A DNA stretch of 64,000 bases from Coleofasciculus chthonoplastes F2-STO-03 (GTDB taxonomy: Bacteria > Cyanobacteriota > Cyanobacteriia > Cyanobacteriales > Coleofasciculaceae): assembly GCA_040222015.1 (NCBI GenBank), contig JAVJWO010000030.1, positions 30,324 through 94,323 on the forward strand, in the 5' to 3' direction. Positions 33,038 to 53,320 of this stretch are shown one piece after another. The notes under the pieces were generated by a model. That model worked only from the letters and a program-made list of their open reading frames with translations. It searched no databases and was not told where the DNA came from. The number at the start of each line of letters is the position of its first letter. Position 1 is the first letter of the stretch. Both the position numbers and the translations under genes were made by a program.

Positions 33038-36000
33038 TCACACCAACTGGTTATAGTCCAGATAAGCCCGAATCACCTGACTATTAACTGACGGACAGAC
33101 AATATGCGTTCCAGCTAAACCCGCTAACGTATTCTGAGAGTCAAACGCCTGAGAGACTAAAGCCGCCGTTTCCAGATAGGGGCGTTGGTTTTCACCCACC
33201 CATTGAGTAAACAGGAACACCAACGGACTCAACGCATTGTCAGGCTGGGAACTGGCCACCTGAACCAGCTTGTCTTGCCACGTAGAATAATCCATCCATT
33301 CAATCGGATGACCGATCGCCCGGATTTCGTCCACCAATTGCCGTAAGGACACCATCTCCGGACTGACCAAGTGAAAGGCTTGACCGCATAAATCCGGTTG
33401 CTGGGACAGATGGATCATCGCTTGGGACACATAATCTACAGGAGTCAAGCTCAGATTTAAGTCCAACTCCGGCGCACTCCCCAATTGAATCAACCCTTTA
33501 ATTAATCGGTCAATCAGATCCCCCTGTTGAGACGCCCCAGTTTGGCTATGTCCCGTAATCATACCCGGTCGGTAAATCGACGCCGGAATCCCCCGTGCGT
33601 GTGCCTGTTTTACTAACTTCTCACCCACCCATTTACTTTGTGCATAACCATCAGATAAGTCATCCCCTGACTCCAAATCATCCTGTTCTAAAATCACCGA
33701 CATCTGAGCATAGCGCGGCGATTGAAACACATCCAGCGTTGAGACAAAGTGAACAGGTTTTACCTTAGTTTTACTGGCTAATTTGAGAATTTCCTGAGTC
33801 CCCAGGACATTAGCGGCTCGCAAGGCGCTGTAGGGATAAATTAAGTTTACAAACGCCCCATTATGATATATGCAGTCAATCTCGCTAGTTAACGCCTCGT
33901 ACTGCGACTCCGATAGTCCCAACCGAGGTTGGGCTAAATCGCCTAACACAGGGATAACTCGCGAGTCCAGCTTATCGGGTGAGAGTAAATAGCGGTTGAA
34001 GCTGGCGGCAATTTTTTGCTGACCCGCCTCTAAAGTTTTGGCACGCACTAAGCAATAGACAGTAGCATTCGTATGTTGGAGTAATTCCTGCAATAAAAAC
34101 GCGCCGAGAAAACCTGACGCACCTGTGATCAAAATCTTTTCCGGTGCGGTGTCCGGCTGACGATAAGGTTGGTCTGGATAAATCGTCTCATCCAAAACCG
34201 CATCGTTAGCTAAATTAGTGACTGCGATTGTACCCGTCACCGTCGTCCCATCCCCTTCAGGGTGAGACGAATCAGCCTCAGTCTTAGCGGTAATCGTTTG
34301 AGCCAGTTCCGCCACAGTCGGCGCTTCAAACAGAGCAAACAAGGGTAACTCCACTTGGAACGTTTCTCGCACCTGCGATAACAGTTGCGCCGTCAGTAGC
34401 GAATGTCCACCTAATTCAAAGAAGTTGTCATACACACCGACGCGCTCAACATCTAATACAGTTGCCCAGATTTGCGCTAACTCCTGTTCAACGGGGGTGC
34501 GCGGTGCGACGAAGGTATCCTGAGCCACCTGTTGCGCCTGGTTCGGGTCAGGTAACGCCTTGCGATCGACTTTACAGTTGGGTGTTAGGGGCAAACTATC
34601 CAGTAGCACAAAGGTCGAGGGAACCATATAAGTCGGTAACTTATCACTCAGGAACGATCGCAACTGCGCCAGCGATAATCCTTGAGTTTTGACGATATGT
34701 TCAAGGCTTTGATGGATTTGTTCCTGCTGAGTAGGTGTCGTCTCAAAAATTACTCCAGCGTTTTCCTCAACGTGCCAAACCACAGTGCCTTGCAGCCACA
34801 AGAGATTTTTCACTCCTGGTAATTTTACCCGCAAAAGTACGGGTTGGTTGTTGTGCCAAAATGTCGGGGTGAGTGCCTTTAAGCTAATCCCGTTGCGGCT
34901 GAAGTTTTGCGTCATCACTTCCACTTGTTGACCCGACTCAAATTCAGCACGACCATTGATCTGGAGGGGAACACGGGGTTCTGTCCGCAGATTTCCCAAG
35001 CTGCGATGGAGTTTCGCCTTCTGGCTGGTTGTGGTATCAAACTTAACGCCCACATAGTCTTCAAATTGCCAGACAATTTGACCTTGCAACCATAACGGAG
35101 TTTCGCCTCCGGGTAATTGTAATCGGAGCAATAGGCGTTGATCGATTTGCCAGCAGTTAGCCGTTGTTGCCTTGAAGCAAATCCCCTCATGGCTGATATT
35201 TTGCGTCATCACCTGGACTTTTTCACCGGACTCCAATTCCGCCAGACAATTAATGTGCAGCGGGATTCGGGGTTCTTGGCGGCGTAAATCATGAACCACT
35301 AATCCCTGGGTTTGAGCAATGTGTTTGATACTCTGACGTAAACGTTGCTGTTGGCTGGAGGTGGTGTCTAGGGAAACGTCTACCCATTCCAGGGATTTTG
35401 TGGCGATGGTTCCAGTGAGTTGGAGTTCATCGGGGACACCCGGAAACTGGCAGCGCAGTGTCAACGATTGACCGTTTCGCCAAGTGGCGGGACCATGAAG
35501 TAAACGAATACTATTGACCGAGAAATTGCTGGTGGTTAATTCAAGGTCTGGATTCCCCTCACACGCTACCCAACACGTCGTTTTTAGGGGAACATTTTCA
35601 ACGTCTAAGTCGCTGACGAGATAAGCAACCAAGCGCTTTTCGCCAGAACTGTCATCACGGGCGACAACCACCGCGTCTCGGATACCCGCATGTTGGTAGA
35701 GGGCAGATTCAATCTCGCCGAGTTCAATCCGAAAACCGCGAATTTTGACCTGGTGATCCAAGCGACCTAAGCATTCCAGAGTCCCATCTGGTAAGTATCG
35801 GGCTAAGTCTCCGGTGCGATAGAGACGGGCACCTGGTTCTGAACTAAAGGGATCGGGAATAAATCGTTCATCAGTTAAGTCAGGTCTATTAAAATATCCT
35901 CTTGCCAAACCAACGCCACCAATTAGTAATTCTCCCGGTTCTTCCACAGGTACAAATTTAATCGGGTCAGATGAGTTTTGCTCAGGATGAGCCAGATAAA

Positions 36001-37090
36001 TTTGGGTATTGGCAATGGGGCGACCGATGGGAATCGGTTTGTCCGCCGATTCTACTTGATGCACGGTTGACCAGATTGTGGTTTCCGTCGGTCCGTACAT
36101 ATTCCACACAGAAGCACTGCGTTCTAGGAGTTGACGCGCCAATTCGCGAGACATGGGTTCTCCACCACAGAGAATTTTAAGCTGGGGATTTCCCTGCCAC
36201 CCTGCGGCTAACAGCATCCGCCAAGTGGCGGGGGTAGCTTGCATGACGGTAGCACCGGATTCTTGCAAAACTGGGATTAACTGAGTCGCATCGGCGGCGA
36301 CATCTCGCGTCACTAAGACAATATCAGCGCCAACGATTAAGGGTAAATAGAGTTCCAATCCGGCGATGTCGAAGCAGATGGTAGTTACAGCCAGCAGAGT
36401 GTCATCGGGAGTGAGTCCAGGGGCGACACTCATTGAGGTGAGGAAATTTACTACCCCACGATGCAGCAATTGGACGCCTTTGGGTTTCCCGGTTGAACCG
36501 GAGGTATAAATCGTGTAGGCTAAATTGTCGGGGGTGACACCACTGTCTAAATTCTCTGGACTATGTTTAGCAATTGCCTGTTGATCTCTATCTAAGCAAA
36601 CGACTTGGACTTGGGTGTCGGGTAATCTTATGAGTTGGTCTTGTTCGGTGACGATGACAGAGACTTGGGAATCCTCAATCATTAACGCTAATCGTTCTTG
36701 GGGATAGGCGGGATCAAGGGGAATATAAGCGCCCCCGGCTTTGAGAATTCCTAATAAACCAACGACCATATCCAGCGATCGCTCTAGACAAATTCCCACC
36801 AGTACATCGGGTCTAACTTGGAGGGTTTGTAAGTAGTGGGCAACTTGGTTGGCGCGGCGGTTCAACTCCCGATAGGTTAGGGTTTGATCCTCAAAGCGAA
36901 TCGCGATTTTGTCGGGTGTGCGATCGCTCGCTTGTTCAATTAACTGATGAATACAGTAATCGGCTGGATAGTAGGTTTGGGTTTGATTTAACTGTTCAAG
37001 TCGCTGCTGTAATTCACGTTTTTTGCTTGTATCAGGAACACCGTGGAATTGCTCAATTTCTAATGATGATTGAAAGGAACGCTCTATCAT
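33038..37090 (-). CDS. Stand-alone NRPS-like A(PilZ-interrupted)-T-R reductase, predicted glycine-activating
   Basis: [44 protein letters not shown], then about 310 aa of three PilZ-like repeats, then LPTYMVP and [18 protein letters not shown]; R domain TGASGFLG and GYAQSKW; no condensation domain. Confidence 0.93.
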   Translation of the reverse strand: [1350 protein letters not shown]

Positions 37091-37667: not shown

Positions 37668-37898
37668 GTCGTATGACTTGTATTTTTCTCTGTTTGTATA
37701 ATATTCTAATCCTCTCCTCTGATCAACAAGATGAGGCAAACTTTACTAAGTCTTTAAAATGAGCATCAATTCTTGATGAAGTTTTTAACGCTTGAGGGTA
37801 TAGTGATCCACTGGCGTCAATAATGTATCTTAACTTAACAAAAATAGAATAAATGAAATAAACAATAATGTTTCTCAAACAAATAGAGACACCCTAGC

Positions 37899-37948
37899 TA
37901 GGGGTGTAGGGTGTAGGGTGTAGGGTGTAGGGTGTAGGGTGTAGGGTA
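37899..37948. repeat. Heptamer tandem repeat (TAGGGTG)n
   Basis: About 7 copies immediately before the four-helix-bundle fragment. Confidence 0.9.
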
Positions 37949-37961
37949 TGGAGATTCGCCA

Positions 37962-38170
37962 GTGCAGTCTTATCGGGATTTACGGGTTTGGCAAGAGGCA
38001 ATGAATTTAGCTGAAGCTTGCTACCGAGGAACAAGAATATTTCCCAAAGAAGAACTTTATGGCATGATTGCCCAAATCCGTAGAGCAGCCGCGTCGATTC
38101 CTGCTAACATTGCCGAAGGTTACGGGCGACGAACTCGGGGAGAATATATCCAGTTTTTGTACATAGCCCA
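37962..38170 (+). pseudogene. Truncated four helix bundle (23S rRNA IVP / bAvd-like) gene
   Basis: SYRDLRVWQ..FPKEELYG..QIRRAAASIPANIAEGYGR..FLYIA; similarity then stops and the frame runs antisense into the permease. Confidence 0.85.
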
Positions 38171-38181
38171 CACCCCAATTC

Positions 38182-39630
38182 TCACTCCTGATACCCCGTT
38201 AATCCTAGCGCCGCCGCTTCTTCCGGGGCTTGAGCCACCAGTCGATTGCTGCGAAACACTAAAAAATAGACACTTGCCACAATCAGCGCTACGCCAATCC
38301 CCCAAACACCGCCTCGGTAATCAGGGATAGAAATACAAGCAACTAGGGCAAATGTGGCTAAAGCCAAACCCACAAATGCTCCCGCTGTTCCCAATGGACT
38401 TTCGTAGGGTTTCGGTAAATAGGGATTCCCTTTTAGCTTCATGTAGCTAACCATGACCAAAATATAGGAAATTAATGCCCCAAACACCGCCATATTCAAA
38501 ATCACAGCATCGACAGTTTGAATACCGATACTCACCAGTAGCACACAGATAAATCCAATCGTCGCCCCGGCAATTAATGCCCGATGGGGGGTATGATTTT
38601 TACTTGTGACTGATAACCAGCGGGGAAAGTACCCAGCACGGGATAGGGAGAAAATAATCCGTCCGTAAGCAAACATATTACCGTGAAGACTGGCAATTAA
38701 ACCACAAATCAGCGCCAGTGCTGTGACAATGGTACTGGTTGCGCCTGCGCCAAAGTAAGCCTCTAACCCATCTTGTAGGGGAGCATCGGATTGCCCAATC
38801 GCCACTGCGCCCCCGCCAACACCAGAGTTAATCACTACGGTGAAAATTGACAAAATAATCAGGGTAACCATGCCAGAAATCATTCCCGCTGGCATATTTC
38901 GAGGCACATCATCGGTTTCCTCTGCCGTCATCGGTAATTGTTCAATCGCCAGATACAACCATATTGCAAAAGGAATCGCGCCAAACACTCCAAACCAGCC
39001 ATTGGGTAACCAGGTTTCTGATTGTCCCGGTTCAGCCGGAATATTAAACAGCAGGTCAAAATTGAATTCACCCGATACCAGCATACTCACATAGAAGATG
39101 CTTAATACCGTTATCGCGATGATGGTTAGCCAAAGACAGACTGTCACACTCAGTTCAAACCCTCGGATATTAATTGCCAAAAAAACAGCGTAGGCAAATA
39201 CCCAGATAAAAAAGCTGGGCAGATTGGGAAATAAGGGCTTGAGGTAATTGCTCAAACTGAACACCAGCGCCGCATTTGCGAGGACATATTCAATCGTGAC
39301 GGTAACCCCACAAATAAAACCCCAAAAAGGACCGAGGGCATAACGGGTGAACGAATAGAATCCGCCCGCATGGGGGAGGGCGGCTGAGAGTTCAGCACTG
39401 CTATAGACTAAACAGAGATACATAATTGCCATTAAGACAGCGGCAATACTAAACCCCCAGAATCCTCCGGAGGCTAAACCATAGTTCCAACCATAGAAAT
39501 CACCTGAGATAACAGCGCCAACTCCTAAACCCCATAAGAGTAAACTACCCGCATTTCCTTGAAGTTGTCGCCGTCTGATATAACCATTATTTACTGTTTC
39601 GTAAGTAGCAATACCTTGAGAATGTTGCAT
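38182..39630 (-). CDS. APC-family amino acid/amine permease, ethanolamine permease (Eat)-like
   Basis: YIRRRQL..LLWGLGVGAVISGDFYGWNYGL, LPHAGG, AIWLYLAIEQLPMTAEE, C-terminal RLVAQAPEE; about 12 TM; GAGG RBS. Confidence 0.88.
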   Translation of the reverse strand: MQHSQGIATYETVNNGYIRRRQLQGNAGSLLLWGLGVGAVISGDFYGWNYGLASGGFWGFSIAAVLMAIMYLCLVYSSAELSAALPHAGGFYSFTRYALGPFWGFICGVTVTIEYVLANAALVFSLSNYLKPLFPNLPSFFIWVFAYAVFLAINIRGFELSVTVCLWLTIIAITVLSIFYVSMLVSGEFNFDLLFNIPAEPGQSETWLPNGWFGVFGAIPFAIWLYLAIEQLPMTAEETDDVPRNMPAGMISGMVTLIILSIFTVVINSGVGGGAVAIGQSDAPLQDGLEAYFGAGATSTIVTALALICGLIASLHGNMFAYGRIIFSLSRAGYFPRWLSVTSKNHTPHRALIAGATIGFICVLLVSIGIQTVDAVILNMAVFGALISYILVMVSYMKLKGNPYLPKPYESPLGTAGAFVGLALATFALVACISIPDYRGGVWGIGVALIVASVYFLVFRSNRLVAQAPEEAAALGLTGYQE

Positions 39631-40231
39631 CGATAAACCTTATCCTCAACTGTTTACCTTGCACCCCAATAACCATTCATTCAGCTCAAACCTTTGGTCG
39701 GTTAAGCTCACCAGATTGGGCGACGTTTCCTGACCTCTTTTCCCCAGTTGAGAGGAAAAACGGATGCCGCCCGTTCATTGCTGATTGCTAGTGGTTGATT
39801 GCCATGAACCATCAACCATGAACCTCCGAAGGAGTACTCTGTAGTTCTTTGACAGCATCATTCCCTCATTCAGCAAATCGTAATACAGATCCGGATTAAC
39901 GGCTGAGCTAGTTTAACGACTGATACAAAAGCGTTCCCTTTAAAAAACTTGATCAAAGTGTATTACACAAATCCTAGACTTGGATCGTCAGTTGTATGAC
40001 GGTTTGGTCGTAAGTGAGGTACACAGATCCCCGACTTCTTAAAGAAGTCGGGGATCTGGCTGGAATCGACTATATTTCATCAACCACGAAATAAACTGTA
40101 AAATTAGCGTCGCCAGAGTAAAAAGATACTGTAAAAACAGTTTAAAAATTGGCGGAAATTATTTTATTTTTTCCATTTATGTTTTGCGTCTGTTATAGTT
40201 CAAAAATAATGGTTATGCTGTGGCTAAGTGT

Positions 40232-43144
40232 ATGAATAGTTTCCAAGATGCGTTTATTTCTTACGGACGAGCAGACAGTAAAGCTTTCGCCACCAAGCTG
40301 TACCAACGACTAATTGAAGCCGAATTCAAGATTTGGTTTGACCAAAACGATATTCCTCTCGGCGTCGATTTTCAAAATCAAATTGACGATGGTTTGGAGA
40401 AGTCAGATAACTTCTTATTCATTATTGCGCCGCATTCGGTGAACTCACCCTATTGTGGTAAAGAAATAGAGTTAGCGATTAAACGCAACAAACGGATTAT
40501 TCCTTTATTGCATGTTGAACAGATTAGCCGAGAAACCTGGCAACAGCGTAATCCCAATGGAACGGATGAGGCGTGGGAGGCTTATAAAGCTAAGGGGCTA
40601 CATTCGAGCTTCCCCAATATGCATCCCCTGATTGGTAAAATTAACTGGGTGTATTTCCGGGAAGGAATTGATGACTTTGAAACCTCTTTAGTCGGTTTGC
40701 TGGAGTTGTTGAAAAGACATGGAGATTACGTCAGACAGCATACTCAATTTTTAGCCAAAGCCCTAGACTGGGAAAAACACCAAAAACAATCGCGCTACTT
40801 ACTGGTTGGGGAAGAGCGCGTGAAAGCAGAATCCTGGTTAAGGGTGCGCTTTGAGACTGAGCAGCCGCCTTGTATTCCCACGGATTTGCACTGTGAGTAT
40901 ATTGGCGAAAGCACCAAGAATGCTAACAACCTGATGACGCAGGTGTTTGTCTCCTACTCGGAGAAAAATAAAAGCGTCATGGAGAAGGTGGTAAAAACGC
41001 TGCGGCGAGAGGGAATCACGATTTGGACGAATAAGACGGATATTAAAACCGGTAAAGATTTCCAAGCGCAAATCGATAACGGCATCGAAGCGGCGGATAA
41101 TTTTATTTATTTAATCTCAAAAGTTTTATTAGTCAAAGCCCTGAAATGGCAGCAGCAAAATCGTAATCCCAGTATTTTATTGCGCGGGTACAATTTACAG
41201 CAGGCTCAAAATTGGCTCAAAATAGCCAAACAGCGCCGGGAACACCCCCCGTTACCCGTGCATGAAGCGTTTATTAATGAAAGCAGTCAGCAACCGCCTG
41301 ACACCTCCATCGATGTGTTCGTTTCCTACTCCCGTACCGATTCCGATTTTACCCGTCGCTTAAATGAGGCGCTGCAAGTTCAGGGAAAAACCACCTGGTT
41401 TGATCAGGAAAGTATTGCGTCAGGGAGTGATTTTCAGCAGGAAATTTATCGGGGGATTGAAGGGTCTAATATTTTTCTATTTATTATCTCCCCCAGTTCG
41501 GTTAATTCGCCTTACTGTGCTGATGAGGTGGAGTATGCGGTGAAGATGAACAAGCGAGTGGTAACGGTACTGTATCGGGAGGTGCCAACCGATCAACTCC
41601 ACCCGATTATGGCAAGTGTTCAGTGGATTAATTTTAACAAGAATGGGGGAGATTTTTATGCGAATTTCAGTGAATTAGTCAGGGCGTTAGATACAGATCG
41701 GGAACATTTACAGGTGCATACACGCTTACTGGCGCGGGCGCTGGAGTGGGACAGGGAAGGGCGTGATCCCAGTTTTTTGCTGCGGGGGAAGGATTTAGAA
41801 ACCTCAGAACAATGGCTTAAGCAAGCAGCGGATAAGGAACCGAAACCGACTGAACTTCAGAAACAGTACATTACAATTAGCCGCAAATCTCCCTTCCGTA
41901 AACCTAAACGTAGTACTGTATTGTTAGGCAGTTTGGCGGCGTCAGTTTTGGTGATGGGAGTGCGTTTTTTGGGACTTTTACAGCCCGTTGAATTGGCGGC
42001 TTATGGTCATTTTATGCGCCTGCGCTCCAGTGAACTTCAAGATGATCGTTTTGTGATTGTGGAAGTTACGGATGACGATATTAATAATGTTTTGCTGAAA
42101 GAGTATGAAGGGGGAAAAGGAACCATACCTGATGCGGCGCTTAACGATATTTTGGAGAAATTGGCACCGTATCAACCGCAGTTGATTGGGTTAGATGTGA
42201 TCCGCGATTTCCAAGTGCAGTCTGATCAGAAAGAATTAGCGACTCGTTTGGAACAAGATAACCGTCTGATTGGGGTGTGTAAGTTGAGTTATGAGGAGAA
42301 ACAGGGCACTATCCCGCCGCCGGAAATTCCCGAAGCCCAACTGTCAGAACGGGTGGGTTTCAGTGATTTAGTCCAATATGGTAATTCAGTAGTACGTCGC
42401 CATTTATTGGTTCATGCACCCGACGAAACTTGCCCAATCATGAGTGCATTTAGTCTCGCGATCGCACGTCGTTATTTAGAGGCTGAGGGTCAGGTGTACA
42501 AACCGCCGTTTAGTCCGGAGGGAGAGTATTTACAGCCACTGCAATTTGGCAGTACGATTTTTCCTTCCTTAGGTGCGTTTTCTGGCGGGTATCAAGGGCA
42601 ATCTGATGCTAACAGTACCTATCAACTTTTACTGAATTACCGTTCACATCAGGGTGATCCCCGGCAATTTGCGCCACGAGTAACCTTGACACAAGTTCTG
42701 GAGAATCAGCTTTCTGAAGCCGATGTGAAAGACCGAATTGTGATGATCGGGATTACGGCGAGAACCAGTGTCAATGATTATTTTTCTACACCCTACGGTG
42801 AAATTGCTGGTGTCGTTCTTCAGGCGCAGATGGCGAGTCAAATTATCAGTGCGGTTCTCGATGGACGAATGCTGATTTGGTGGTTGCCATTTTGGGGCGA
42901 TGTGCTGTGGATTTTGGGTTGGTCATTGGTTGGTGGTGTGATTGTTTGGCGCTTCCAGCAACCTTTATATATTGGTTTAGCAGGGGGGGTTGGTTTAATT
43001 GTTTTGTACGGCACTTGTTACGTGATGTTCAATGCTTTGGGAGGTTGGATACTGTTAGTTCCACCAGCGTTGGCTTTGTTGGCGACAAAAGGGATTGTCC
43101 TATATGTGACTTCCATGCCAACAGGATCGCGTTTTAAATTTTAG
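40232..43144 (+). CDS. TIR-TIR(partial)-TIR-TM-CHASE2 membrane protein
   Basis: AFISYGRADS..CGKEIE; VFVSYSEKN (truncated); VFVSYSRTDS..CADEVE; then LQPVELAAY, IGLDVIRD, VGFSD..VRRHLL, GVVLQAQMASQIIS and three TM helices; ATG at 40232 (GTG at 40220 possible). Confidence 0.9.
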   Translation: MNSFQDAFISYGRADSKAFATKLYQRLIEAEFKIWFDQNDIPLGVDFQNQIDDGLEKSDNFLFIIAPHSVNSPYCGKEIELAIKRNKRIIPLLHVEQISRETWQQRNPNGTDEAWEAYKAKGLHSSFPNMHPLIGKINWVYFREGIDDFETSLVGLLELLKRHGDYVRQHTQFLAKALDWEKHQKQSRYLLVGEERVKAESWLRVRFETEQPPCIPTDLHCEYIGESTKNANNLMTQVFVSYSEKNKSVMEKVVKTLRREGITIWTNKTDIKTGKDFQAQIDNGIEAADNFIYLISKVLLVKALKWQQQNRNPSILLRGYNLQQAQNWLKIAKQRREHPPLPVHEAFINESSQQPPDTSIDVFVSYSRTDSDFTRRLNEALQVQGKTTWFDQESIASGSDFQQEIYRGIEGSNIFLFIISPSSVNSPYCADEVEYAVKMNKRVVTVLYREVPTDQLHPIMASVQWINFNKNGGDFYANFSELVRALDTDREHLQVHTRLLARALEWDREGRDPSFLLRGKDLETSEQWLKQAADKEPKPTELQKQYITISRKSPFRKPKRSTVLLGSLAASVLVMGVRFLGLLQPVELAAYGHFMRLRSSELQDDRFVIVEVTDDDINNVLLKEYEGGKGTIPDAALNDILEKLAPYQPQLIGLDVIRDFQVQSDQKELATRLEQDNRLIGVCKLSYEEKQGTIPPPEIPEAQLSERVGFSDLVQYGNSVVRRHLLVHAPDETCPIMSAFSLAIARRYLEAEGQVYKPPFSPEGEYLQPLQFGSTIFPSLGAFSGGYQGQSDANSTYQLLLNYRSHQGDPRQFAPRVTLTQVLENQLSEADVKDRIVMIGITARTSVNDYFSTPYGEIAGVVLQAQMASQIISAVLDGRMLIWWLPFWGDVLWILGWSLVGGVIVWRFQQPLYIGLAGGVGLIVLYGTCYVMFNALGGWILLVPPALALLATKGIVLYVTSMPTGSRFKF

Positions 43145-43639: not shown

Positions 43640-44413
43640 ATGAAAATTAAATCACTTGCCGGACAAATCTTATTAGTTAGCGCTCTCACCTTCCCCTTAG
43701 TTGATTCTGTAATTAACCCACCCCAAGTGCAGGCGCAATCAGTCACTCAGCGGATCGGGTCGCTCTTTTCATCCCAGAAAAAGTTGGGAACCGCATCGGG
43801 TCGTTCTAGAGGTGGGGCGATTAGGGGGGAATGTCCAGCCGCGGTAGATAAATCCATTATTGCCCTGGGACCAGAAAATAATTTAGGGTCAACCCTTAAA
43901 GCAGATCCGACTTTATTATTTTATATGCCTTATGCCCAATCTATGGGTGTTAAATATGGTAGATTTGTCCTCTTGGATGAAGCCGGAAATTTTGTATTGC
44001 AACAACCGTTTTTTGTGGAACTTCCTGAAAATCCCGGCATTGTTAGATTTACCCCACCCACGACTGAATCGGTTGGGGCAAATGAGAAATCTATAGAAGT
44101 GGGTAAGCGGTATCAGTGGGTCTTTTCCGTTATTTGCAATTTCAAACAACCAGCGGGTAATCCCACTGTCAGTGGCTGGATTCAACGGGTTGCACCCAGT
44201 CCTGAATTGGAGAATCAGCTTGAGCAAGAGTCTGCAGACACAGACTATTTAACGTACCTCAATCATGGCATTTGGTATGAGGCAATTAACCAACTTGCCC
44301 AAAACCGGGATGCCTATTCAGAGGATTGGGCTGGGCTATTAAACCACTATGATTTATCTGAGTTTACTCAAAGTTCGATTGGTGAATTGCGTCCTGTCAC
44401 CGCAGGAAATTAA
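43640..44413 (+). CDS. DUF928 family secreted protein
   Basis: Signal peptide, GGAIRGEC, PTLLFYMPY, YQWVFSVIC, GWIQRV, GIWYEA. Confidence 0.92.
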   Translation: MKIKSLAGQILLVSALTFPLVDSVINPPQVQAQSVTQRIGSLFSSQKKLGTASGRSRGGAIRGECPAAVDKSIIALGPENNLGSTLKADPTLLFYMPYAQSMGVKYGRFVLLDEAGNFVLQQPFFVELPENPGIVRFTPPTTESVGANEKSIEVGKRYQWVFSVICNFKQPAGNPTVSGWIQRVAPSPELENQLEQESADTDYLTYLNHGIWYEAINQLAQNRDAYSEDWAGLLNHYDLSEFTQSSIGELRPVTAGN

Positions 44414-44536
44414 GAACTTGTCACGTTTTCAGGTCAATGAATGCCATTGAGGGCGACCCGACAATAGTTATCAGAATGTTCACATCATTTTGTACAGCGG
44501 TCGCCCCTATTATTGACATAAAAAAACAAATGACAA

Positions 44537-47455
44537 TTAAAGCCAGTTGCCTATCAGAATATAAGGCGCCCAGTAGCGGGGAGACTTGTACTCAGTATTT
44601 TGTAATAAATGCTCTTGGGCGCGACGTAGGGCTTCCGCTTTGGTCACATTTGGTTGAGCCAAATTTTGATAGAATTGCTTCATAAACTCTACACTGGACT
44701 CATCGTCCACACTCCAAAGCGTTGCGATGGCGCTTCCAGCACCCGCACGCACGGTAGTTCCCGCAATCCCTAGATCTGCGCGTTTGTCACCATCAGCCGT
44801 TTCGCAAGCACTAAAGACTAATAATTCGATCGCATCGACGCGGGTGGCGTTTCTGAGCCGAAACAGTTCATCTAATTCCTTCACCGTCAGCTTACCATCT
44901 GCGGCGAGGATAAAGGTATTGTCCGGATCGGAACTAAATTTGCCATGGGTGGCGATATGGATGACTTGAAACGCCGATTTATTCAGTTTTTGGTTAAAAT
45001 TTGCCCGGGTAAATTCTTGCTCACGTAATGTACTCAGGGCAACTCCCGTCTCAGCAATTTTATCCAACTCTTTCTCAACATTCGAGAGTTTCGCAAACTG
45101 TTCAAATCCTACAGGCGGTTGAACTAAACTAGCCGCTAGAACCGTTATTTGCTGCTTGTTTAACGGTTTTGGGTTTTGCATAACTAAGTTCGGGGCGACA
45201 ACGAGGGCATACTTTTGAAACAAATAGTTTTCGCCATCATAAAGCGCCGCTAGGGGAACATTCCGCAGAGAACCATCGAGGACAAAGACCAAGGTTTTGA
45301 TATTATTTTTATCTAATCGTTCTCGAATCGGTTGAATCAGCCACTTGTAGACCTGTTGAGACTGATTTCGCAGCGTTTCCGATACGAATACCTCCTGCAA
45401 ATTGCCACGTAACCCAGTCAGGGTTTTGCTCAGTTCAGCTTCAGGGACATCGCTGCGATAGGCGTATAAGTCGTCATCTCCTGGCAATTTGAGGATAATT
45501 TCTAGGCGATTACTGAGAATAATTGGGTAAAGAAACGCCGCCGTTGGGTCTTTTTCCTCAATCACTCGGTCAATCGCCTCTGGACTGGATTCAGAACAGG
45601 GTTCTTGCAAAAAGTTCTCCAGTTCAGCGATTTGCAGCGACTCCATCACCCGGCGGGCTTGTTTGAGGTTCTCTTGGCGGGGATTCTGGGAATTCAGAAG
45701 TAAATCCACAAAGGTGCGATAAACGGGTTCTTCTACCTTTTCTCGGAACGTAAATTGGAAATCTTCAGCGCTAGCGCTTAAATCTCGGCGCAGGGCTTGC
45801 AGTATATCGAAGGTTGTTTGGTAGGCAAACCGTGCCTTTTCTATCTCTCCTTGGTGATGGTAAATGCGTCCCAATTGCCAACTCCAACGATAGGCACTAT
45901 CCCACGCCTGAATGGATTGGGATAGGTTGAGGGCGTCTTGGGTGAGTTGTTGCGCGGATGACCAATCTTTTGTTTGTTCGTATCGATACCCCAAATAACC
46001 CAGCGCATTGGCTTTAGCGCCGGGATTGTTGAGTTGTTCGGCGTTGGCGTTAGCCGCATTTAAAAGCTGGTCAATGGTGTCCCAGGAGGGCGTCGAGGTG
46101 AGGGAAAGTCGGGAGGAGATATCCTTGAGGCGGATTAAATTTTGGGCGAAGTTGGTTTGGGCGAGAATGGTGTTGTAACTGGGGGGACGTTGGGTTAATT
46201 GAGTCTGAATCTGAGTCCAGTTTAGCTGGGAAAGTTGGGCTTGGATTTGGGATAACCATTCGTTAAGGGTGGTGGAGAATTCATCGGTTGAGGAAACCCC
46301 TGGCGGTAACCAGTCGTTGGCGGTTTGGCTTTTGGAGGCTTTAATGGTCTGTAACCATTGTTCGACATCCAGTAAGAGACTCAGGCGATTTAGTTGTGCC
46401 TGGATTTGAGGGTCAGAGGTGGCGTGGGCGGCGTTTTGATAGGCGTCTAATGCGGTTTGAGTATAGAGACGCGCTTGCTCAAAATCCGCCGAGTCTTGGG
46501 TTTGTTGATAGGCGTCACGCTGGCGTTGACTGAAATCTCTGGCGGTATTGCCTAAACTTAGGTGGGTCGAACCGAGGACGGAGGGCTGTTGTAGGTCTAT
46601 ACTTAGTTCTAAAATGGCTTGGGATAGGTTTAAATGACCCAGGATTTGCAGTAAGCTACCGAGACTATTTAAGCCTGTGAGTTTGATTGGAGTGGCTTGG
46701 GTTTGTTGGCGAAGCTTGTCGAGGAGGGGTTTGGGTTCCTGTTGTGCTAATTCCTTACAGTCTGTGTCGGTCAATCCAAATACTTGTAATAATGTCGTGC
46801 AGGCGCGGGGATGAATGCCCAAGGCTTGCAGCGCTTGCGCCTGATTGATTAAACTGCGGCTAACTCCGGTGTCATCGGCCAATTGCTGATAGAGTTGGGT
46901 GGCTTGTTTCCAGGTGATGAGTGCGGCGTTGGCGTCTCCCTGGGCGAGTTGCAGGGTTCCCTGATTGTTGAGGGCTTGGGCGTGAACTTTTTTGTAGTCA
47001 GTGGTCGTGTTTTGGGGCTGGGTTTGGAGTAAATTTAAGCTGAGTGCGATCGCGTCTTGGGCTTGTGACCATTCTCCTAATTGCTGATAGGCGAGGGCAA
47101 GATTACTCAAAACCATAGCTTGATTGAGTGTATCACCTTGGGCGGCAAAGGTGGAGGCGGCGTCTTGCCAAATTGTTACGGCGGCGGTATATTTCCCGGT
47201 TTGGTACAGTTGGTTTCCCTGTTGTACCCGTTGGATGGTGGGCGATTGAGTCTGAGGATTAGGTAGAGGCGATCGCGCTAATGTGGTGGGATGCTCCCGA
47301 TTTTGTGGTAAGCTAGCCTGTACGATGGGAATCCGTGTGGGCAGAAAAGGGGTTTCCCAGTTCAACAGCAGAGTCAGCAGAGTCGTGCTAATCCCCCAGC
47401 CGAGATACTTGAGGAACTTTTCCAGAGAGGTTCGCGATCGATATTGTTTTTTCAT
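44537..47455 (-). CDS. TPR + CHAT (caspase-like) domain protein, likely exported
   Basis: TPR helices, ELENFLQEPC, DGSLRNVPLAALYDG, HIATHG and FSACETA (His/Cys dyad), LWSVDD, YWAPYILIGNWL. Confidence 0.94.
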   Translation of the reverse strand: MKKQYRSRTSLEKFLKYLGWGISTTLLTLLLNWETPFLPTRIPIVQASLPQNREHPTTLARSPLPNPQTQSPTIQRVQQGNQLYQTGKYTAAVTIWQDAASTFAAQGDTLNQAMVLSNLALAYQQLGEWSQAQDAIALSLNLLQTQPQNTTTDYKKVHAQALNNQGTLQLAQGDANAALITWKQATQLYQQLADDTGVSRSLINQAQALQALGIHPRACTTLLQVFGLTDTDCKELAQQEPKPLLDKLRQQTQATPIKLTGLNSLGSLLQILGHLNLSQAILELSIDLQQPSVLGSTHLSLGNTARDFSQRQRDAYQQTQDSADFEQARLYTQTALDAYQNAAHATSDPQIQAQLNRLSLLLDVEQWLQTIKASKSQTANDWLPPGVSSTDEFSTTLNEWLSQIQAQLSQLNWTQIQTQLTQRPPSYNTILAQTNFAQNLIRLKDISSRLSLTSTPSWDTIDQLLNAANANAEQLNNPGAKANALGYLGYRYEQTKDWSSAQQLTQDALNLSQSIQAWDSAYRWSWQLGRIYHHQGEIEKARFAYQTTFDILQALRRDLSASAEDFQFTFREKVEEPVYRTFVDLLLNSQNPRQENLKQARRVMESLQIAELENFLQEPCSESSPEAIDRVIEEKDPTAAFLYPIILSNRLEIILKLPGDDDLYAYRSDVPEAELSKTLTGLRGNLQEVFVSETLRNQSQQVYKWLIQPIRERLDKNNIKTLVFVLDGSLRNVPLAALYDGENYLFQKYALVVAPNLVMQNPKPLNKQQITVLAASLVQPPVGFEQFAKLSNVEKELDKIAETGVALSTLREQEFTRANFNQKLNKSAFQVIHIATHGKFSSDPDNTFILAADGKLTVKELDELFRLRNATRVDAIELLVFSACETADGDKRADLGIAGTTVRAGAGSAIATLWSVDDESSVEFMKQFYQNLAQPNVTKAEALRRAQEHLLQNTEYKSPRYWAPYILIGNWL

Positions 47456-47629
47456 AGTCTCGAAAATTACCTACTTAACTGGAATGGCACTGAAAATTTG
47501 CATTAGGGAATCACCGAAACCTTTGATATACCGTAGGGTGGGCATTGCCCACCAAAATACCAGTCAGTGGCATTCTACTTAACTGGGCGGTTTGGGCGAT
47601 TTCTAATCGCCAGGGCTTCTATCAACAAA

Positions 47630-50600
47630 TTAATTTCCAGGTAGATTCTGACAATAATCAACCATTTGCCCAGACATTTGGGAGGTAACCGTCGGCGGAT
47701 TAGCCGTCAGCACCACCGTACCATCGGCAAGCTTCACCCAACCTTGCGCTTCAATAATTTGTTTGGCAGAATTAGTCGCACTCTCCCTGGTTTTTCCCGT
47801 CTCGCCAGTCCCCCCATCGGCTTCCCCATTCACCACACTACCCAAATCGGCTAGTACATAATTACTGCCAAGGGCGTCATCGGGACTAGGAGGCAAACCA
47901 CCGCGTCCAGTGATAGTGAATTCACTGCCCATACCATTAGCGCTACAGCGACTCACGATTTGCCGGGAAGAATCCGCCAGTTGTGTCGGTAATTCAGTCA
48001 ATCCCCCACTGGGGTCAATCGCCAGGGTGGTAATTTCCACTTGACCTTGGGCACCAAACTCTGAACTAGCATCAATATCATTCGTGCGGTTGCCATTGAT
48101 AGCAGGGCGTGCCTGAATCCCAAAAATTTGTTGGGCACTCAGGTTAATACGACCACCATTGCCAGCTTCAGCTTTGGCGACAATATCACTGCCATTGTCT
48201 CCTTGTGAAGACAGAGCAATCAGGAAGCCCGTGTCAGAGTTAAGCTTAATATCGATATTTCCACCATTGGCTGTACCACTGGCATTAGCAGAAATTAGGC
48301 TTTCATTACTCAGGAGTAATAATTTGCCAATATTTAACTCAATATTTGCCCCACCGCCTTGAGTGTCAGCCGTCAGTTGTCCGCGATTCAAAGTAACCGA
48401 ATCAGCCGTGACAGTTAAGTTGCCAGCAGTACCTCCACCTTGGCTGCTGACAGTGGCGCTAGAGTTTCCGCCAAGGGTAAGTCGGTTAGCGGTAATGTCG
48501 AGGTTTCCAGCGTTACCTCCTTTCGTGGCTTCGGCTTCTAGGCGGCTATTATTGGAAAGTTCAACCGTACCTCCTGAAGCCTCGATTGAGACATTACCTC
48601 CCTCCCCGCTTTGAGTAGAGGCAGATATCTCACTGTCATTGTTTAACTGTAAAGATGTTAAATCCTGGAGTTGAATATTGCCCCCACTACCTGCCTCTGT
48701 GGTGGCGGCTAACCGGGCTGAGTTGTCCAGAATCACTTCTGGCACACTCACCATGAGGCTACCTGCGGTGCCCTTGGCTGTGCTGCTGACAGTGGCGCTA
48801 GAATTTCCGCCAAGGGTAAGTCGGTTAGCGGTAATTTCCAGGTTTCCAGCGTTGCCTCCCTGTGTGGCTTCGGCTTCTAGACGGCTATTATCAGTAAGTT
48901 CAACTATACCTCCTGAAGCCTTAATTGACACATCACCTCCGTTCCCGCTTTGAGTGGAGGCAGATATCTCACTGTTATTGTTTAACTGTAAAGATCTTAA
49001 ATCCTGGAGTTGAATATTGCCCCCACTACCTGCCTCTGTGGTGGCGGCTAACCGGGCTGAGTTTTCCAGAATCACTTCTGGCACACTCACCATGAGGCTA
49101 CCTGCGGTGCCCTTGGTTGTGCTGCTGACAGCAACTGCTGCCCTATCTCCAATACTCAACTGCCCTGTCGTAATTTTGACATTGCCAGCACTACCGCCAT
49201 GAGTTGCTTGTGCGAGAATACCACCGGGTTCTTTATTTTCTACGTCAGTTACAGTGCCGCTGAGTTCGACTGACTCGGAAGCTGTTACCGTGATATTTCC
49301 CGCTTTTCCGCTTTGAGTGGATGTTGAAATTAAGCTATCAATAACCCGTAGTGTCTGTAGCCCTTGCAGAATGATATCGGCTGAGTCTTCTGGGCTTCCT
49401 CCGGCATCCGTTTCGGCAGTGATTTGTCCGCCGCGATTGAGGGTAACGCGGCTAGCGGTAATATTCACATCACCGGCTGTACCAGAGTTCTTCGCACTGA
49501 CGGTTATAGCTGCCTCATCTTCAATATTCAACTGTCCTGTCGTAAGCTTGATATTGCCAGCATTCCCCGCCGTACTCTCTTCGGCAGCACTGGAGATTTT
49601 ACCTTTCTGCCCCAACTCTACTCTGCCGTTTTCGGCATTAATTGTGACATTACCCGCATTGCCTTGATCCTTGGTGCTAGCTGAGATCACTGCATTATCT
49701 ACCGTAAGCGAACCCGTTTTTAATGTGATGCTTCCTGCATTCACCACTCCCAAAGTACTGGCATTGATTTTCGCATCATTTGTTAAGTGAATTGATGCCC
49801 CACTCAGTTCAATCTTTGCGTCATTTTGCGCTGGTTTAGTTCCTCCGACTTGATTCAAAATGCTGCTGTTGTTAACGGTAATTGTCCGAGTAGCATTAAA
49901 CCTAATATTTCCAGGTATACTATTTGCTGTATTGATTGGAATAGGATCACTGTCTATGTCAAAAATACCTTGACTACCTTTTTGGGCTTGAAAAGAGTAG
50001 TAGTGAAAGTTCCCATTTCCTGTACCTGAAATAGAGACGTGGGGAATGCTTTTAGAATCTTCAACATCGTCATTAGCTTTCAAGATGAAATTACCATCAA
50101 TACTCTGGGCTTGGTTCAGTGAATCATTATAAGATTGAGAATTGACGGGTAAAGTAGAATTAGGATACCTATCATTTTTAACTGAAACCTGAAGGTTATA
50201 CTTTTCTCCCTGCTGTAATGACTGACCTTCAATCTTACCGTCTGAAGCTGAGGAAGAGAAAGCTCCAACGCCGACAATATACCTTCTATCTTCGTCAAAC
50301 TTATATTTAATGTAAGAATCTAATCCAGTTTTACTTCCTCCTGCACCTTGTGAGATACTAGAGTCGTCATTTTCTGCTAATAAATTACCTGTATCGTCGA
50401 ATAAGAAAAGTTGGGTGTCTATAAACCGATTGGGCAAACCTGCATTAATTTGAGTCTCATTGGTGAGGGATATTGATTCAGCTTTTATTGTAATATCACC
50501 CCCCTTTCCTTCATCACTACTAGAGGCAGTTATGTTGCTCTTGTTGATTGTAACTTCAGAACCTCCAGTAATGTTGATGTCTCCACTCTTTCCTTGACTG

Positions 50601-53320
50601 CTATAAGTACTGGTATTAAGATTGCTATCGATGATATTTACAGTTTCACCAGCCTTAATCTGCACATTGCCAGCTTTGCCACCATTAGAACTGGAACTAA
50701 AGGTATCAATATTGCTATTGCTGAGGGTTAAAGTTGCACTAGAGAGGGTAATGGCTCCCCCATTTCCTTTCCAAGATGAGGAGTCCAGATATTTTGTAGT
50801 GATTTTCCCTCCAGCATCCAGATTGATTTTTCCCCCATTTCGGTTCCAAGAGTAGGAGGAGACAGACTCTATAGAAATGTTTCCTTCAGCATCCAGATGG
50901 ATCTCTCCCCCATTTCCACCAGAGGAGAAGGAGTCGAGAGACTCTGTGGAGATGTCCCCACCTGCAGTGAACGCGATCGCTCCTCCATTTCCACCAGAAG
51001 AAGAGGAGTTGAGAGACTCTGTGGAGATGTTACCACCTGCAGTGAACGCGATCGCTCCTCCATTTCCATCATAAGAGGAGGAGTTGAGAGACTCTGTGGA
51101 GATGTTACCACTTGCAGTGAACGCGATCGCTCCCCCATTTCCACGAGAAGAGGAAGAATCTAGGATTCCTGTGGTGATACTGCCACTAGCATCAAGGCTA
51201 ATCGTGCCTCCAGCATTCACAGGATTGTTCGTATTCAGATTTTCCACACTGATGTTTCCATTTGTGGCATTTAGATTGATTGAACCACTCTTTCGAGTAA
51301 TAGGAGTTCCAAATAGCAGTTGTGTTCCTATTGCTTCTCCCCAAGGTGCCGGATCACCCGCCCGGAACAACGTGCCGGAATCCCCTCCCGCATCATCAGT
51401 AACACTCAAAGTCCACTTTCCCGTAGGGTTCTCGCCCTGAAAAACTGCTAATCCTCCATCACCTTCAGGTTTGAAGGTTCCATTAAAAGGAGCTGACCCT
51501 TGATTAATGCTCCTTTGTGCTTCATCATCGAGTAGAGTGTCCTGGAAATTATCACCACTACCCCCTACATCACTGAACAATTCTAACTCCGTTCCACATG
51601 GCGATTTGAGAAAAACATCCAGGTCACTATTATAGGTATGTATTGCCGAAAACCGCACATCCAGATTACCGATAGGTTGCCCTAAATCCGGCACAGTGAA
51701 GGTGAATATCGCATTACCCTGAGTTCCCGTTTCTGGAATCGATCCACCTGCATCCACATTCACCGGCGTTATCAACTCACCCCCCTTAACATCAAAGGTA
51801 TTAATATTCCCCAAGGTCAAACTCGCGCCGGAAATAAAAATATCCCGTCCATTGGTTTTGAGGGTATCTTTAACAGTGTCCTCCATCACCACCGCACCCA
51901 CCCCGTCACTATCTGCATCAGCCGTTAACTTAATCTCCCCATTTCCAGACTTAAACGTTAAGGCATCATCGACTAAATCATCAATCCGAATATCATTAGT
52001 CGCCTGTAAAATAACGTTACTATCCCCCGCTAACCCCTCCAACTCCGACTCATAAATCGTCGTCGGTGCTGTATCATTAATCGTACTCAACGGCGCACTC
52101 CAAATCTCTCCTACCTCTCCAGAATTATTCCCGGCAAACGTATCCGTACCATCCGTCGCACTATCACCAGAACCATTAGCAATCCTAATATCCGTCGGGT
52201 CAAGCAGCAAAGTCCCCCATAACCCATTCACCGCAATGGTATCAACCGTTCCCCGAAATATCAGGTGTTCCTTCGCCGATACCTCTACAAACCCACCATT
52301 TCCCGATTCAGTTCCCCCACGGGCGCTAATTGTGCCATAAAATCCTGTCACCTCATCTGCCCAAACAATGACATTACCCCCATCGCCTGTAGTTAAAGTA
52401 TCGGCATTAATAATTACATCTGAACCAATAAAAGTACGCAGCGCATTGGGAACATCACCGTTCCCCTGAAACCCGCCACCAATTAACACCGTACCGCCAC
52501 CCGTCTGTGAGGATACATCAATCCGGGCATTATCTAACAAACCAACCCGTTCTCCTAAAACCTGAACTAACCCGCCTGGTGCTGTAAGAGAACCCGTACT
52601 GGTAACTTCGCTACCAAATAATGTTAGAGACTTGCCCGAATCAACCGCTAAAGAACCCGCATTGCTAATAGTTCCCCCTGAACTCAAATTACTTTCTATA
52701 TTCCCAGATGGTTGGGAGGATTCAGAGGGGTTATTTTGCCCATACTGCAACCCCGGAGTCACGTTAATCGTCAACAACGGCGGCGCTTCCGGATTCACCG
52801 CACTAAACTCACTACCATCGGGAAACTTAAAACTATTTGCCGTAGATGCCAAAAACGAACCGCCAATATCTAACCGGGCATTGGCACCAAAAATCACCCC
52901 ATTGGGATTGAGTAAAAAGAGATTCGCCGCACCATTTGCCCGAATCAAGCCATCAATATCGGAAATATTAGTACCCGTTACCCGACTAAAAATAGTCTCA
53001 ATTTCCAAGGCATTGTTAAAAAACGCTTGACCCCCCGTGGGAATAGAAAACTCCTGGAAACTATGGAACAAGTTAACCCCGCGCACTGTGCCATCCTCAA
53101 TCGTGAACACCTTGCCATCTGGCGTAACACGAGTATTAACCGGAAGCGTATTATCAGGAATTATCGGCTGTGAACTAGCGGGTTGAACACCAACCATCAC
53201 GCTGAACGCGACGCTGCTAGCCAATGCTAGGGAAAAGCCTTTTTCTTGTGTAAGTGATACCTTTTCAGGGCAAGTCCAATCCTTGTTTACCGCGCTTGAC
53301 AGTGCTGCGAAGACATGCAT
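47630..53320 (-). CDS. Filamentous haemagglutinin-family (TpsA-like) exoprotein
   Basis: [21 protein letters not shown] motif, G.GG.I.I.A beta-helix repeats, C-terminal [15 protein letters not shown]; inserted P-domain (about 51370-51712) and PPC-like domain (about 49946-50425). Confidence 0.93.

Follow-up and report, generated by a model that had tools for sequence, protein, structure and literature searches.

How does an adenylation domain come to carry a row of second-messenger receptor domains, and what might they do there? The question is raised by a gene of the cyanobacterium Coleofasciculus chthonoplastes F2-STO-03, within the 64,000-nucleotide stretch of DNA that we analysed as a whole (contig JAVJWO010000030.1, positions 30,324 to 94,323; hereafter the window). 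The gene encodes a stand-alone enzyme of the nonribosomal peptide synthetase (NRPS) type, with adenylation (A), thiolation (T) and thioester reductase (R) domains, and its A domain is interrupted between the core motifs a8 and a9 by three tandem PilZ units, the last two of which carry both signatures of receptors for cyclic di-GMP (c-di-GMP). A first-pass annotation had placed the units at 34680-35610, which corresponds to residues 494-804 of the 1350-amino-acid (aa) open reading frame (ORF), and had proposed that c-di-GMP controls the enzyme through them. The sequence and predicted fold of the insert suggest that c-di-GMP may indeed switch the enzyme directly. The parts of the gene are as follows.

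33038..37090, minus strand: whole gene, one unbroken ORF of 1350 aa, stand-alone NRPS-like A(PilZ x3)-T-R
35783..37090, minus strand: adenylation core, aa 1-436 (Pfam AMP-binding at aa 52-400, E 1.3e-89)
35615..35782, minus strand: first part of the A-subdomain, aa 437-492, from a8 GRLDHQVKIRGFRIELGEIE through the strand RLVAYLV
35291..35614, minus strand: unit 1, aa 493-600, degenerate PilZ-like barrel and helix, with DVENVP for RxxxR and NFSVNS for [DN]xSxxG
34988..35290, minus strand: unit 2, aa 601-701, canonical PilZ (PF07238, 57.3 bits, E 2.1e-15) with a shortened C-terminal helix
35267-35284 and 35183-35200, minus strand: motifs of unit 2, RRQEPR (aa 603-608) and NISHEG (aa 631-636)
34655..34987, minus strand: unit 3, aa 702-812, canonical PilZ (PF07238, 43.8 bits, E 3.4e-11) with the full C-terminal helix QSLEHIVKTQGL
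34973-34987 and 34889-34906, minus strand: motifs of unit 3, RTEPR (aa 702-706) and NFSRNG (aa 729-734)
34511..34654, minus strand: second part of the A-subdomain, aa 813-860, with a9 LPTYMVP and a10 PNCKVDR, including the catalytic lysine as read in the sequence
34292..34486, minus strand: thiolation (carrier) domain (Pfam PP-binding at aa 869-933, E 2.4e-15) with the GGHS attachment site
33038..34141, minus strand: thioester reductase domain (Pfam NAD_binding_4 at aa 988-1225, E 7.7e-72; TIGR01746 at aa 985-1347)

The insert begins right behind RLVAYLV (aa 486-492) and ends before LRSFLSDKLPTYMVP. Motif a8 spans aa 442-461 and motif a9 aa 818-824; their spacing is 371 aa, as against 65-81 aa in ordinary A domains among the homologues; in interrupted homologues the spacing grows in steps of about 100 aa (~170, ~273 and 371-383 aa). 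The Pfam model AMP-binding_C is split, with a match of aa 459-494 to profile positions 1-36 of 76 that stops at the insert. This is an interruption of the a8-a9 type, in which a guest lies between a8 and a9 of a complete A domain, and within aa 493-812 Pfam found no catalytic family, the guest being PilZ only. The position in the a8-a9 loop of the mobile A-subdomain, as first annotated, is confirmed, and relatives with a methyltransferase in this loop are interrupted at the identical point.

Searches with the whole protein found PF07238 (PilZ) in two stretches (E 2.4e-27). When the units were scanned alone against Pfam (aa 495-600, 601-700 and 701-810), units 2 and 3 scored 57.3 and 43.8 bits against a PF07238 cut-off of 22.5 bits, and their arginine and [DN]xSxxG motifs read as had been annotated. 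Unit 1 retains the degenerate SNFSVNS that had been pointed out (aa 521-527), with the motif glycine lost and DVENVP at the place of the arginine motif. Scanned alone, it gave no PilZ match in all of Pfam at E up to 10; the sole match, to DUF5955 (E 0.046, below the cut-off), we take as chance. Unit 1 is nonetheless 39% identical to unit 3 over 99 aa (BLASTP E 6e-21) and, judged by this alignment, is a true but diverged PilZ homologue that has lost both motifs. The annotated stretch of about 310 aa in three homologous units, each of ~100 aa, is confirmed.

Searches of the PDB by sequence gave nothing usable, so a comparison of folds was needed. The insert itself found 0 matches at E up to 0.01, and a profile of our alignment A2 found only marginal ones (best 0.026; XC1028-type PilZ, YpfA/MotI and BcsA) together with matches of its a9 flank to NRPSs. 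We therefore modelled aa 486-824 with AlphaFold2 from a 13-row alignment (mean predicted local distance difference test score, pLDDT, 79.2; predicted template modelling score, pTM, 0.40) and compared the model with the PDB using Foldseek, followed by a second structural comparison that gave Z scores and root mean square deviations (rmsd). The model consists of a beta-barrel with a C-terminal helix, three times over, unit 1 being the most confident part (pLDDT 91-94). The best Foldseek matches are c-di-GMP receptors, namely PlzA (1.4e-9), MotI/DgrA, VCA0042, MrkH and YcgR; next come the PilZ domains of BcsA, MapZ and Alg44. Units 2 and 3 each superpose on single solved PilZ domains at Z 12-14.7 and rmsd 2.2-2.7 Å. 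Unit 2 (model residues 115-221) aligns with the PilZ domains of MapZ, Alg44, BcsA and YcgR at Z 12-14.5 and rmsd 2.3-3.4 Å, and unit 3 (217-326) with that of E. coli BcsA at Z 14.7 and 2.3 Å over 107 residues. Units 1 and 2 together (11-218) align along MotI (Z 14.2) and YcgR (Z 12.6), both at rmsd 14-15 Å, and along MrkH, PP4397 and VCA0042; unit 1 takes the place of the N-terminal barrel in these two-domain alignments and is matched only there, at high rmsd. The predicted structure of units 2 and 3 bears out what the profiles had indicated, and the identity of the inserts as PilZ domains is supported by hidden Markov model (HMM), motifs and predicted fold.

The surrounding enzyme appears complete. 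The A core contains a3 YTSGSTGKPKG, a5 NMYGPTE and a7 YRTGDLARY, the carrier motif GGHSLL lies at aa 894-899, and the reductase has a TGASGFLG nucleotide site (GxxGxxG-type) and YAQSK (YxxxK). With a8, a9, the a10 lysine, GGHS, the nucleotide-binding glycines and YxxxK, the full catalytic set can be read, and the protein has what defines an A-T-R enzyme: an adenylation domain, a GGHS carrier and a reductase of the short-chain dehydrogenase type with YxxxK. Among NCBIfam models, only the generic TIGR01733 (amino-acid adenylation, 455.2 bits, cut-off 317.4) and TIGR01746 (thioester reductase, 350.7 bits, cut-off 213.35) exceed their cut-offs; the equivalogs Lys2, MxcG and CAR fall far below theirs. 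The best explanation of these motifs and scores is that the gene product is an active stand-alone NRPS-like reductase.

At the ten specificity positions, which we take to follow GrsA numbering, the A domain reads DILQLGMIWK. The same string is the signature given for four glycine-activating domains (PMC12283262). Among 34 PilZ-type A-T-R proteins with a complete A core, DILQLGMIW with the lysine is found in 30, DILQLGMVW in 3 and DIVQIGGIY in 1. In multi-module proteins the insert is not bound to one substrate and occurs with phenylalanine, cysteine, valine, alanine and beta-amino-acid codes. By its code the enzyme here probably uses glycine, from which we infer aminoacetaldehyde, or ethanolamine after a second reduction, as the likely product. 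No description of a cyanobacterial glycine A-T-R pathway was found in the literature.

Directly upstream on the same strand lies a transporter gene:

38182..39630, minus strand: APC transporter of 482 aa (Pfam AA_permease_2), closest to ethanolamine permease

Against TIGR00908 the transporter scores 359.5 bits (E 2.5e-107; cut-off 381.75), the next family reaching 102 bits, and it is the sole TIGR00908-like gene of the genome; 'ethanolamine-permease-like' is the most that holds for it by sequence. Where the flanks of a PilZ-type locus could be read, the permease gene is found directly upstream of the enzyme gene in all four cases (the window; L001; L059 and L060, from two other genera). No homologue was found at E up to 1e-10 in the fetched flanks (~9 kb) of 20 other A-T-R loci, a contrast that is indicative only, as several of the 20 are C-A-T-R or otherwise not strict orthologues. 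Between permease and enzyme gene, positions 37878-38097 show a word depth 5-10x that of the surroundings in contigs from RNA libraries, with many loose ends, and are therefore taken as a repeated element, located where a plus-strand ORF (37962-38330) begins that matches a family of 23S ribosomal RNA intervening-sequence proteins.

To place the insert among its relatives, we searched with the region and obtained 47 proteins, all with PF07238 and an A domain and nearly all cyanobacterial. Three units occur in Coleofasciculus-type proteins (six other database clusters, with inserts 83-92% identical) and in one UBA9273 protein, two units in most relatives (A-T-R proteins of 1230-1300 aa, from many genera), and one or two in C-A-T-TE and longer NRPSs. 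All middle units carry RxxxR (8/8), [DN]xSxxG (8/8) and hence both (8/8). Last units carry RxxxR in 34 of 41, [DN]xSxxG in 34 of 41 (41 of 41 if glycine is allowed for the serine) and both in 27 of 41. First units have RxxxR in none of 41 and [DN]xSxxG in 34, with both in 0/41, and single units likewise have RxxxR in 0/8, [DN]xSxxG in 8/8 and both in 0/8. In alignment A2 (mean column identity 49%) the aspartate and two arginines of DLRRxEPR are invariant.

The first units that lack the motif glycine and the single conserved arginine are exactly the seven of Coleofasciculus; unit 1 therefore degenerated in the same lineage in which a third unit arose. A tree of 98 units places first and single units (support 0.975) apart from middle and last ones. 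Within the latter, the 14 middle and last units of Coleofasciculus group together as a separate clade (support 0.978), so that units 2 and 3 are a genus-level duplicate of the canonical unit. The middle unit of UBA9273 branches elsewhere, and three-unit arrays therefore probably arose twice. The in-place duplication first proposed for units 1 and 3, on the likeness of their ends, accordingly holds in the tree for units 2 and 3 instead, as a recent event, with unit 1 an older, separate unit type; the tails of units 1 and 3 are alike because every full unit closes with the same helix. In unit 2 this helix is shorter by about 12 residues, lost where the duplicated copies join (alignment A2).

A wider profile search of 1.84 billion cluster representatives returned 875 proteins with an E-value of 1e-3 or below; 148 of them remain at 1e-10 and 51 at 1e-30. 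At least one unit was detected by the unit HMM in 137 of the best 150, the other 13 being large NRPSs matched by the a9 flank only. When the flanks of each array were scored with small HMMs built from the a8-side and a9-side flanks of homologues, 116 of 147 unit arrays were flanked on both sides (76 single, 37 double and 3 triple), and most of the others are truncated because the fragment ends there. When the phylum was sampled evenly, a match at E up to 1e-12 was present in 21 of 401 genomes and 13 of 156 genera, the own genome counted. Among at least 28 related loci found by an a9-flank pattern, which are no census, the insert occurs beyond the cyanobacteria in Anaerolineales, in another Chloroflexi metagenome-assembled genome (MAG) and in a Thiotrichaceae MAG. 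PilZ-interrupted A domains are not rare in sequence databases. One Anaerolineales MAG encodes a multi-module NRPS whose A domain is interrupted by PilZ (L003:7163-16302), followed by a fused ATP sulfurylase/adenylylsulfate (APS) kinase gene, which places the insert in Chloroflexota assembly lines as well, with a product that is possibly sulfated.

A different arrangement is seen in free-standing proteins of ~320-330 aa (L061:9781-10770, plus strand, genome G089; also P0056/P0061), in which two PilZ units are enclosed by the closing part of an A-subdomain and nothing else is present. They retain the a8-side strand and decayed a9 and a10 motifs (LPPELIP, QGKIDP), and are without adenylation core, carrier or release domain. 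The form is present in three separate 50%-identity clusters from other cyanobacteria, which suggests a maintained gene and not a wreck.

Close cyanobacterial relatives found with the T-R half of the enzyme, 55-65% identical there, are of three kinds. Some are PilZ-interrupted, some have no insert and measure about 1015-1060 aa, and some contain a methyltransferase and measure about 1440-1500 aa. The a8-a9 loop is 63-85 aa long when empty and about 470-500 aa when filled by a methyltransferase, and the guest sits in all cases at the identical point, behind RLVAYxV and ahead of LRxFLKEKLPxYMxP. Most of these A-T-R relatives share the glycine code. P0260 (Fischerella-type, 1052 aa) and P0256/P0257 have a spacing of 85 aa, yet keep the head (TELNVE) and tail (ETQGLSLTHLRSF) of the PilZ array, which suggests that the 'plain' loop of the P0260 type is a secondary loss of the array. 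The methyltransferase-interrupted glycine-code A-T-R enzymes (P0215, P0217, P0225, P0271 and about 20 others) would make an N-methylated C2 amine or aldehyde, and we found no description of such a product.

The units are under purifying selection. The ratio of nonsynonymous to synonymous substitution rates (dN/dS), taken from a single pair with the L001 orthologue and modest counts, is 0.195 for unit 1, 0.176 for unit 2 and 0.23 for unit 3, compared with 0.127 in the A core and 0.043 in the reductase; the two parts of the A-subdomain give 0.039 and 0.063. Contigs about 92% identical cover the gene including the insert in four of four RNA library runs, which indicates presence and is not proof of transcription, since runs stored as contigs carry no strand, transcript ends, level or co-transcription, and a lower depth between the genes does not count as evidence; they span the insert, the only difference in length being an in-frame 3 bases.

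The genome also has the enzymes of c-di-GMP turnover, with 17 GGDEF and 7 EAL matches (Pfam). Its PilZ matches in Pfam number three: two in the enzyme gene, and one in a GT2-PilZ BcsA-like cellulose synthase next to BcsB. In another genus, a PAS-rich sensor of 643 aa is encoded about 1.3 kb downstream of the PilZ-type A-T-R gene (L060:13374-15302, minus strand, genome G095); it has a weak match to a diguanylate-cyclase sensor domain, and no GGDEF was detected in it at E up to 1e-6.

These observations can be joined into a mechanism. The enzyme would load glycine on its carrier and release it reductively, giving aminoacetaldehyde or, with a second reduction, ethanolamine. Within the rotating A-subdomain, the a8-a9 loop would hold a c-di-GMP sensor array, made of a motif-less barrel and two canonical PilZ domains, with the RxxxR arginines lying in linkers between barrels as in YcgR, MotI, PlzA and PlzD. 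In YcgR, PlzD and PP4397, c-di-GMP binds at the barrel junction and draws neighbouring barrels together. Binding of c-di-GMP to units 2 and 3 would likewise rigidify or re-pack the array, alter the swing of the A-subdomain between its adenylation and thiolation positions and thereby gate flux, on or off; product or substrate would be handled by the co-oriented ethanolamine-permease-like transporter upstream. It is the receptor-like layout combined with a site in the rotating subdomain that leads us to think that a ligand-driven change of the array gates catalysis, and we lean, by a little, towards ligand-dependent stiffening or re-packing of the PilZ array as the explanation. A fuller account is rather doubtful as a whole: a lid array that directly switches a glycine-to-aminoacetaldehyde/ethanolamine enzyme with a dedicated permease, in step with cellulose synthase in the building of mats and biofilms, and that forms a portable switch and a new class of c-di-GMP effector across cyanobacteria, Chloroflexota and Thiotrichaceae. 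The portability is suggested by the loop itself, which is empty, methyltransferase-filled or PilZ-filled in relatives, so that the array would be a ligand-controlled switch transferable among NRPS-type enzymes.

Several observations weigh against gating by c-di-GMP or against parts of this account. Of the 41 last units in close relatives, seven are without RxxxR, and in seven the motif serine is replaced by glycine. In the 116 flanked arrays of the wider family (representatives at 50% identity), RxxxR is found in 5 of 76 single units, 12 of 40 first units and 17 of 40 last units, and [DN]xSxxG in 58 of 76, 36 of 40 and 27 of 40, respectively (middle units: 2 of 3 and 3 of 3); in most single inserts the first arginine of RxxxR is absent. 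The rarity of RxxxR in single inserts indicates that the insert has some role independent of canonical binding; the general role therefore cannot be canonical c-di-GMP binding, and the other role may dominate here too. Within the array, unit 3 reads LRTEPR and lacks the RRxxxR of unit 2, and the ligand sites of the two units may differ; the residue before RxxxR reportedly decides whether two ligand molecules or one are bound in PP4397 as compared with VCA0042. At a pTM of 0.40 the mutual arrangement of the barrels is not predicted, and the two-barrel superpositions lie at rmsd 12-15 Å, meaning that domain order is shared and orientation is not predicted. No GGDEF or EAL gene is located on the window's contig. 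As for substrate and product, the assumed GrsA numbering underlies the glycine code, and the permease falls just under the curated TIGR00908 cut-off. EutB was not found in the genome, which leaves ethanolamine without an obvious use, and the BcsG family had no match in it (completeness 99.99%). A link to phosphoethanolamine-cellulose, also considered, is unsupported with neither BcsG nor EutB found in the genome.

The array might alternatively bind c-di-GMP and act as a tether, bringing the enzyme to the permease, the membrane or the cellulose synthase complex, or dimerising it, with catalysis unchanged. Many PilZ proteins do work by ligand-dependent protein contacts, including YcgR and MotI (flagellar motor) and MapZ (CheR1) among the structural matches above, and the conserved transporter is a plausible target. 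Recruitment would also suit the geometry of methyltransferase-interrupted A domains, in which the a8-a9 loop faces away from the active site, as in the TioS structure (PDB 5WMM; in our searches it turned up as a sequence relative only). Nothing ties the array to a partner, however; the same insert occurs in multi-module NRPSs without a nearby permease, and it sits in the one subdomain that rotates by a large angle, a place well suited to affect catalysis. We regard tethering as unlikely.

If instead c-di-GMP is irrelevant, the insert would be a structural or docking element, serving oligomerisation, carrier guidance or stability and inherited from a motif-poor form, with motifs that are incidental or bind another ligand. 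In the canonical units, however, the arginines and NxSxxG are the best-conserved stretch across proteins that are 40-50% identical, which is hard to explain without a ligand, and the canonical unit was duplicated with both motifs kept in both copies in seven of seven Coleofasciculus proteins. A structural role does fit the single inserts, which are widespread and in frame inside large NRPSs even with RxxxR in 5 of 76, and unit 1, which has neither motif and is still under purifying selection (dN/dS 0.195). XC1028, a solved PilZ fold with trivial c-di-GMP binding, is among the structural matches as well (Z 7.1). This explanation, too, strikes us as improbable.

A third possibility is that of a 'trigger enzyme', which would be mainly a receptor, with catalysis secondary or lost and the A-T-R scaffold reporting c-di-GMP or glycine status. 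That the sensor part can live alone is illustrated by the free-standing A-subdomain-PilZ proteins without a catalytic core (L061, P0056/P0061). The catalytic motifs of the A, T and R domains are intact here, however, the reductase has a low dN/dS (0.043) and 30 of 34 relatives keep the glycine code, making a mere receptor very improbable. Finally, a chimeric contig or misread frame that would create an apparent insertion can be rejected, since the 1350-aa frame is single and unbroken, nothing was found in support of an artefact, the same three-unit protein recurs in six other Coleofasciculus-type clusters (83-92%) and, flanked by the same genes, at locus L001, many genera have two-unit forms, and independent RNA-library contigs cross the junction of a8 and insert.

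Further along the window, two other regions drew attention. In the 974-aa product of a gene at 40220-43144 (plus strand), three TIR_2 stretches precede a CHASE2 sensor domain, an unusual pairing of an NADase fold of signalling or defence type with an extracytoplasmic sensor. The region 43640-53320 encodes a DUF928 protein, a TPR-CHAT protein of 972 aa and a TPS-domain exoprotein of 1896 aa with a proprotein-convertase P-domain.

If gating of the A-subdomain by c-di-GMP is true, it would be the first instance of an NRPS-type enzyme with a built-in, direct control by a small molecule. In c-di-GMP biology, the synthesis of natural products and small amines would join the processes that the messenger governs at the protein level, in a genome with 17 GGDEF matches and two Pfam-detected PilZ proteins, and for engineering, a portable lid insert operated by a ligand would be useful for switching engineered assembly lines. 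The system is tractable, with a small, stand-alone enzyme, glycine as the predicted substrate, and uninterrupted and methyltransferase-interrupted relatives that serve as built-in controls. The motif-poor majority means that canonical c-di-GMP binding is not general in the family, and since half of the binding motif is missing from most A-domain PilZ inserts, a blanket annotation of the family as c-di-GMP-responsive should be avoided.

How does the enzyme compare with known systems? Interrupted A domains of the a8-a9 type (TioS A-M-A, PDB 5WMM) also have a foreign domain nested in the a8-a9 loop of a complete A domain. Their described guests are catalytic, whereas here the loop holds one to three tandem copies of a receptor fold for a second messenger, which is not catalytic. 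Section 3.3 of PMC8949500 describes nested guests that are methyltransferases, monooxygenases, oxidases or reductases, and Lundy, Mori and Garneau-Tsodikova (2020; PMC8341866) describe seven families of bacterial interrupted A domains, methyltransferase only; the terms 'PilZ' and 'c-di-GMP' are absent from its main text. The gene thus shares the interrupted-A architecture and fits none of the families described in those parts of the two sources (PMC8341866, PMC8949500). The first-pass annotation knew of no characterised PilZ-interrupted A domain, and we likewise found none in the literature (titles and abstracts, with most subscription journals outside the search).

The best structural matches, the two-barrel receptors YcgR, MotI (DgrA), PlzA, PlzD (VCA0042), PP4397 and MrkH, share the order of motif-less barrel, RxxxR linker and canonical PilZ domain. 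Those receptors are free-standing and act on motors or DNA, whereas the array here is spliced into an enzyme domain with a third barrel added, and its first barrel is a PilZ paralogue and not of the YcgR-N (PilZN) family, no Pfam family exceeding its cut-off in unit 1. BcsA cellulose synthase is likewise an enzyme carrying its own PilZ domain, in which c-di-GMP releases an autoinhibited state (structures 4P00/4HG6, both among the structural matches of the insert). In BcsA, however, the PilZ domain is C-terminal and not nested, and BcsA is unrelated to the present enzyme in class and chemistry. Lys2-type aminoadipate reductase, carboxylic acid reductases and PvfC-type amino-aldehyde makers share the A-T-R order and reductive release, with partial Lys2 and MxcG model matches here, and a fungal NRPS-like glycine betaine reductase is also described as a stand-alone A-T-R enzyme (bioRxiv 10.1101/559534). 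None of these enzymes is known to carry a sensor insert, and the substrate predicted here is glycine. Compared with these systems, what is new is an array of three units with its history, a glycine code, a permease as partner, a loop that is empty, methyltransferase-filled or PilZ-filled by turns in related enzymes, and the result that across the wider family canonical motifs are exceptional.

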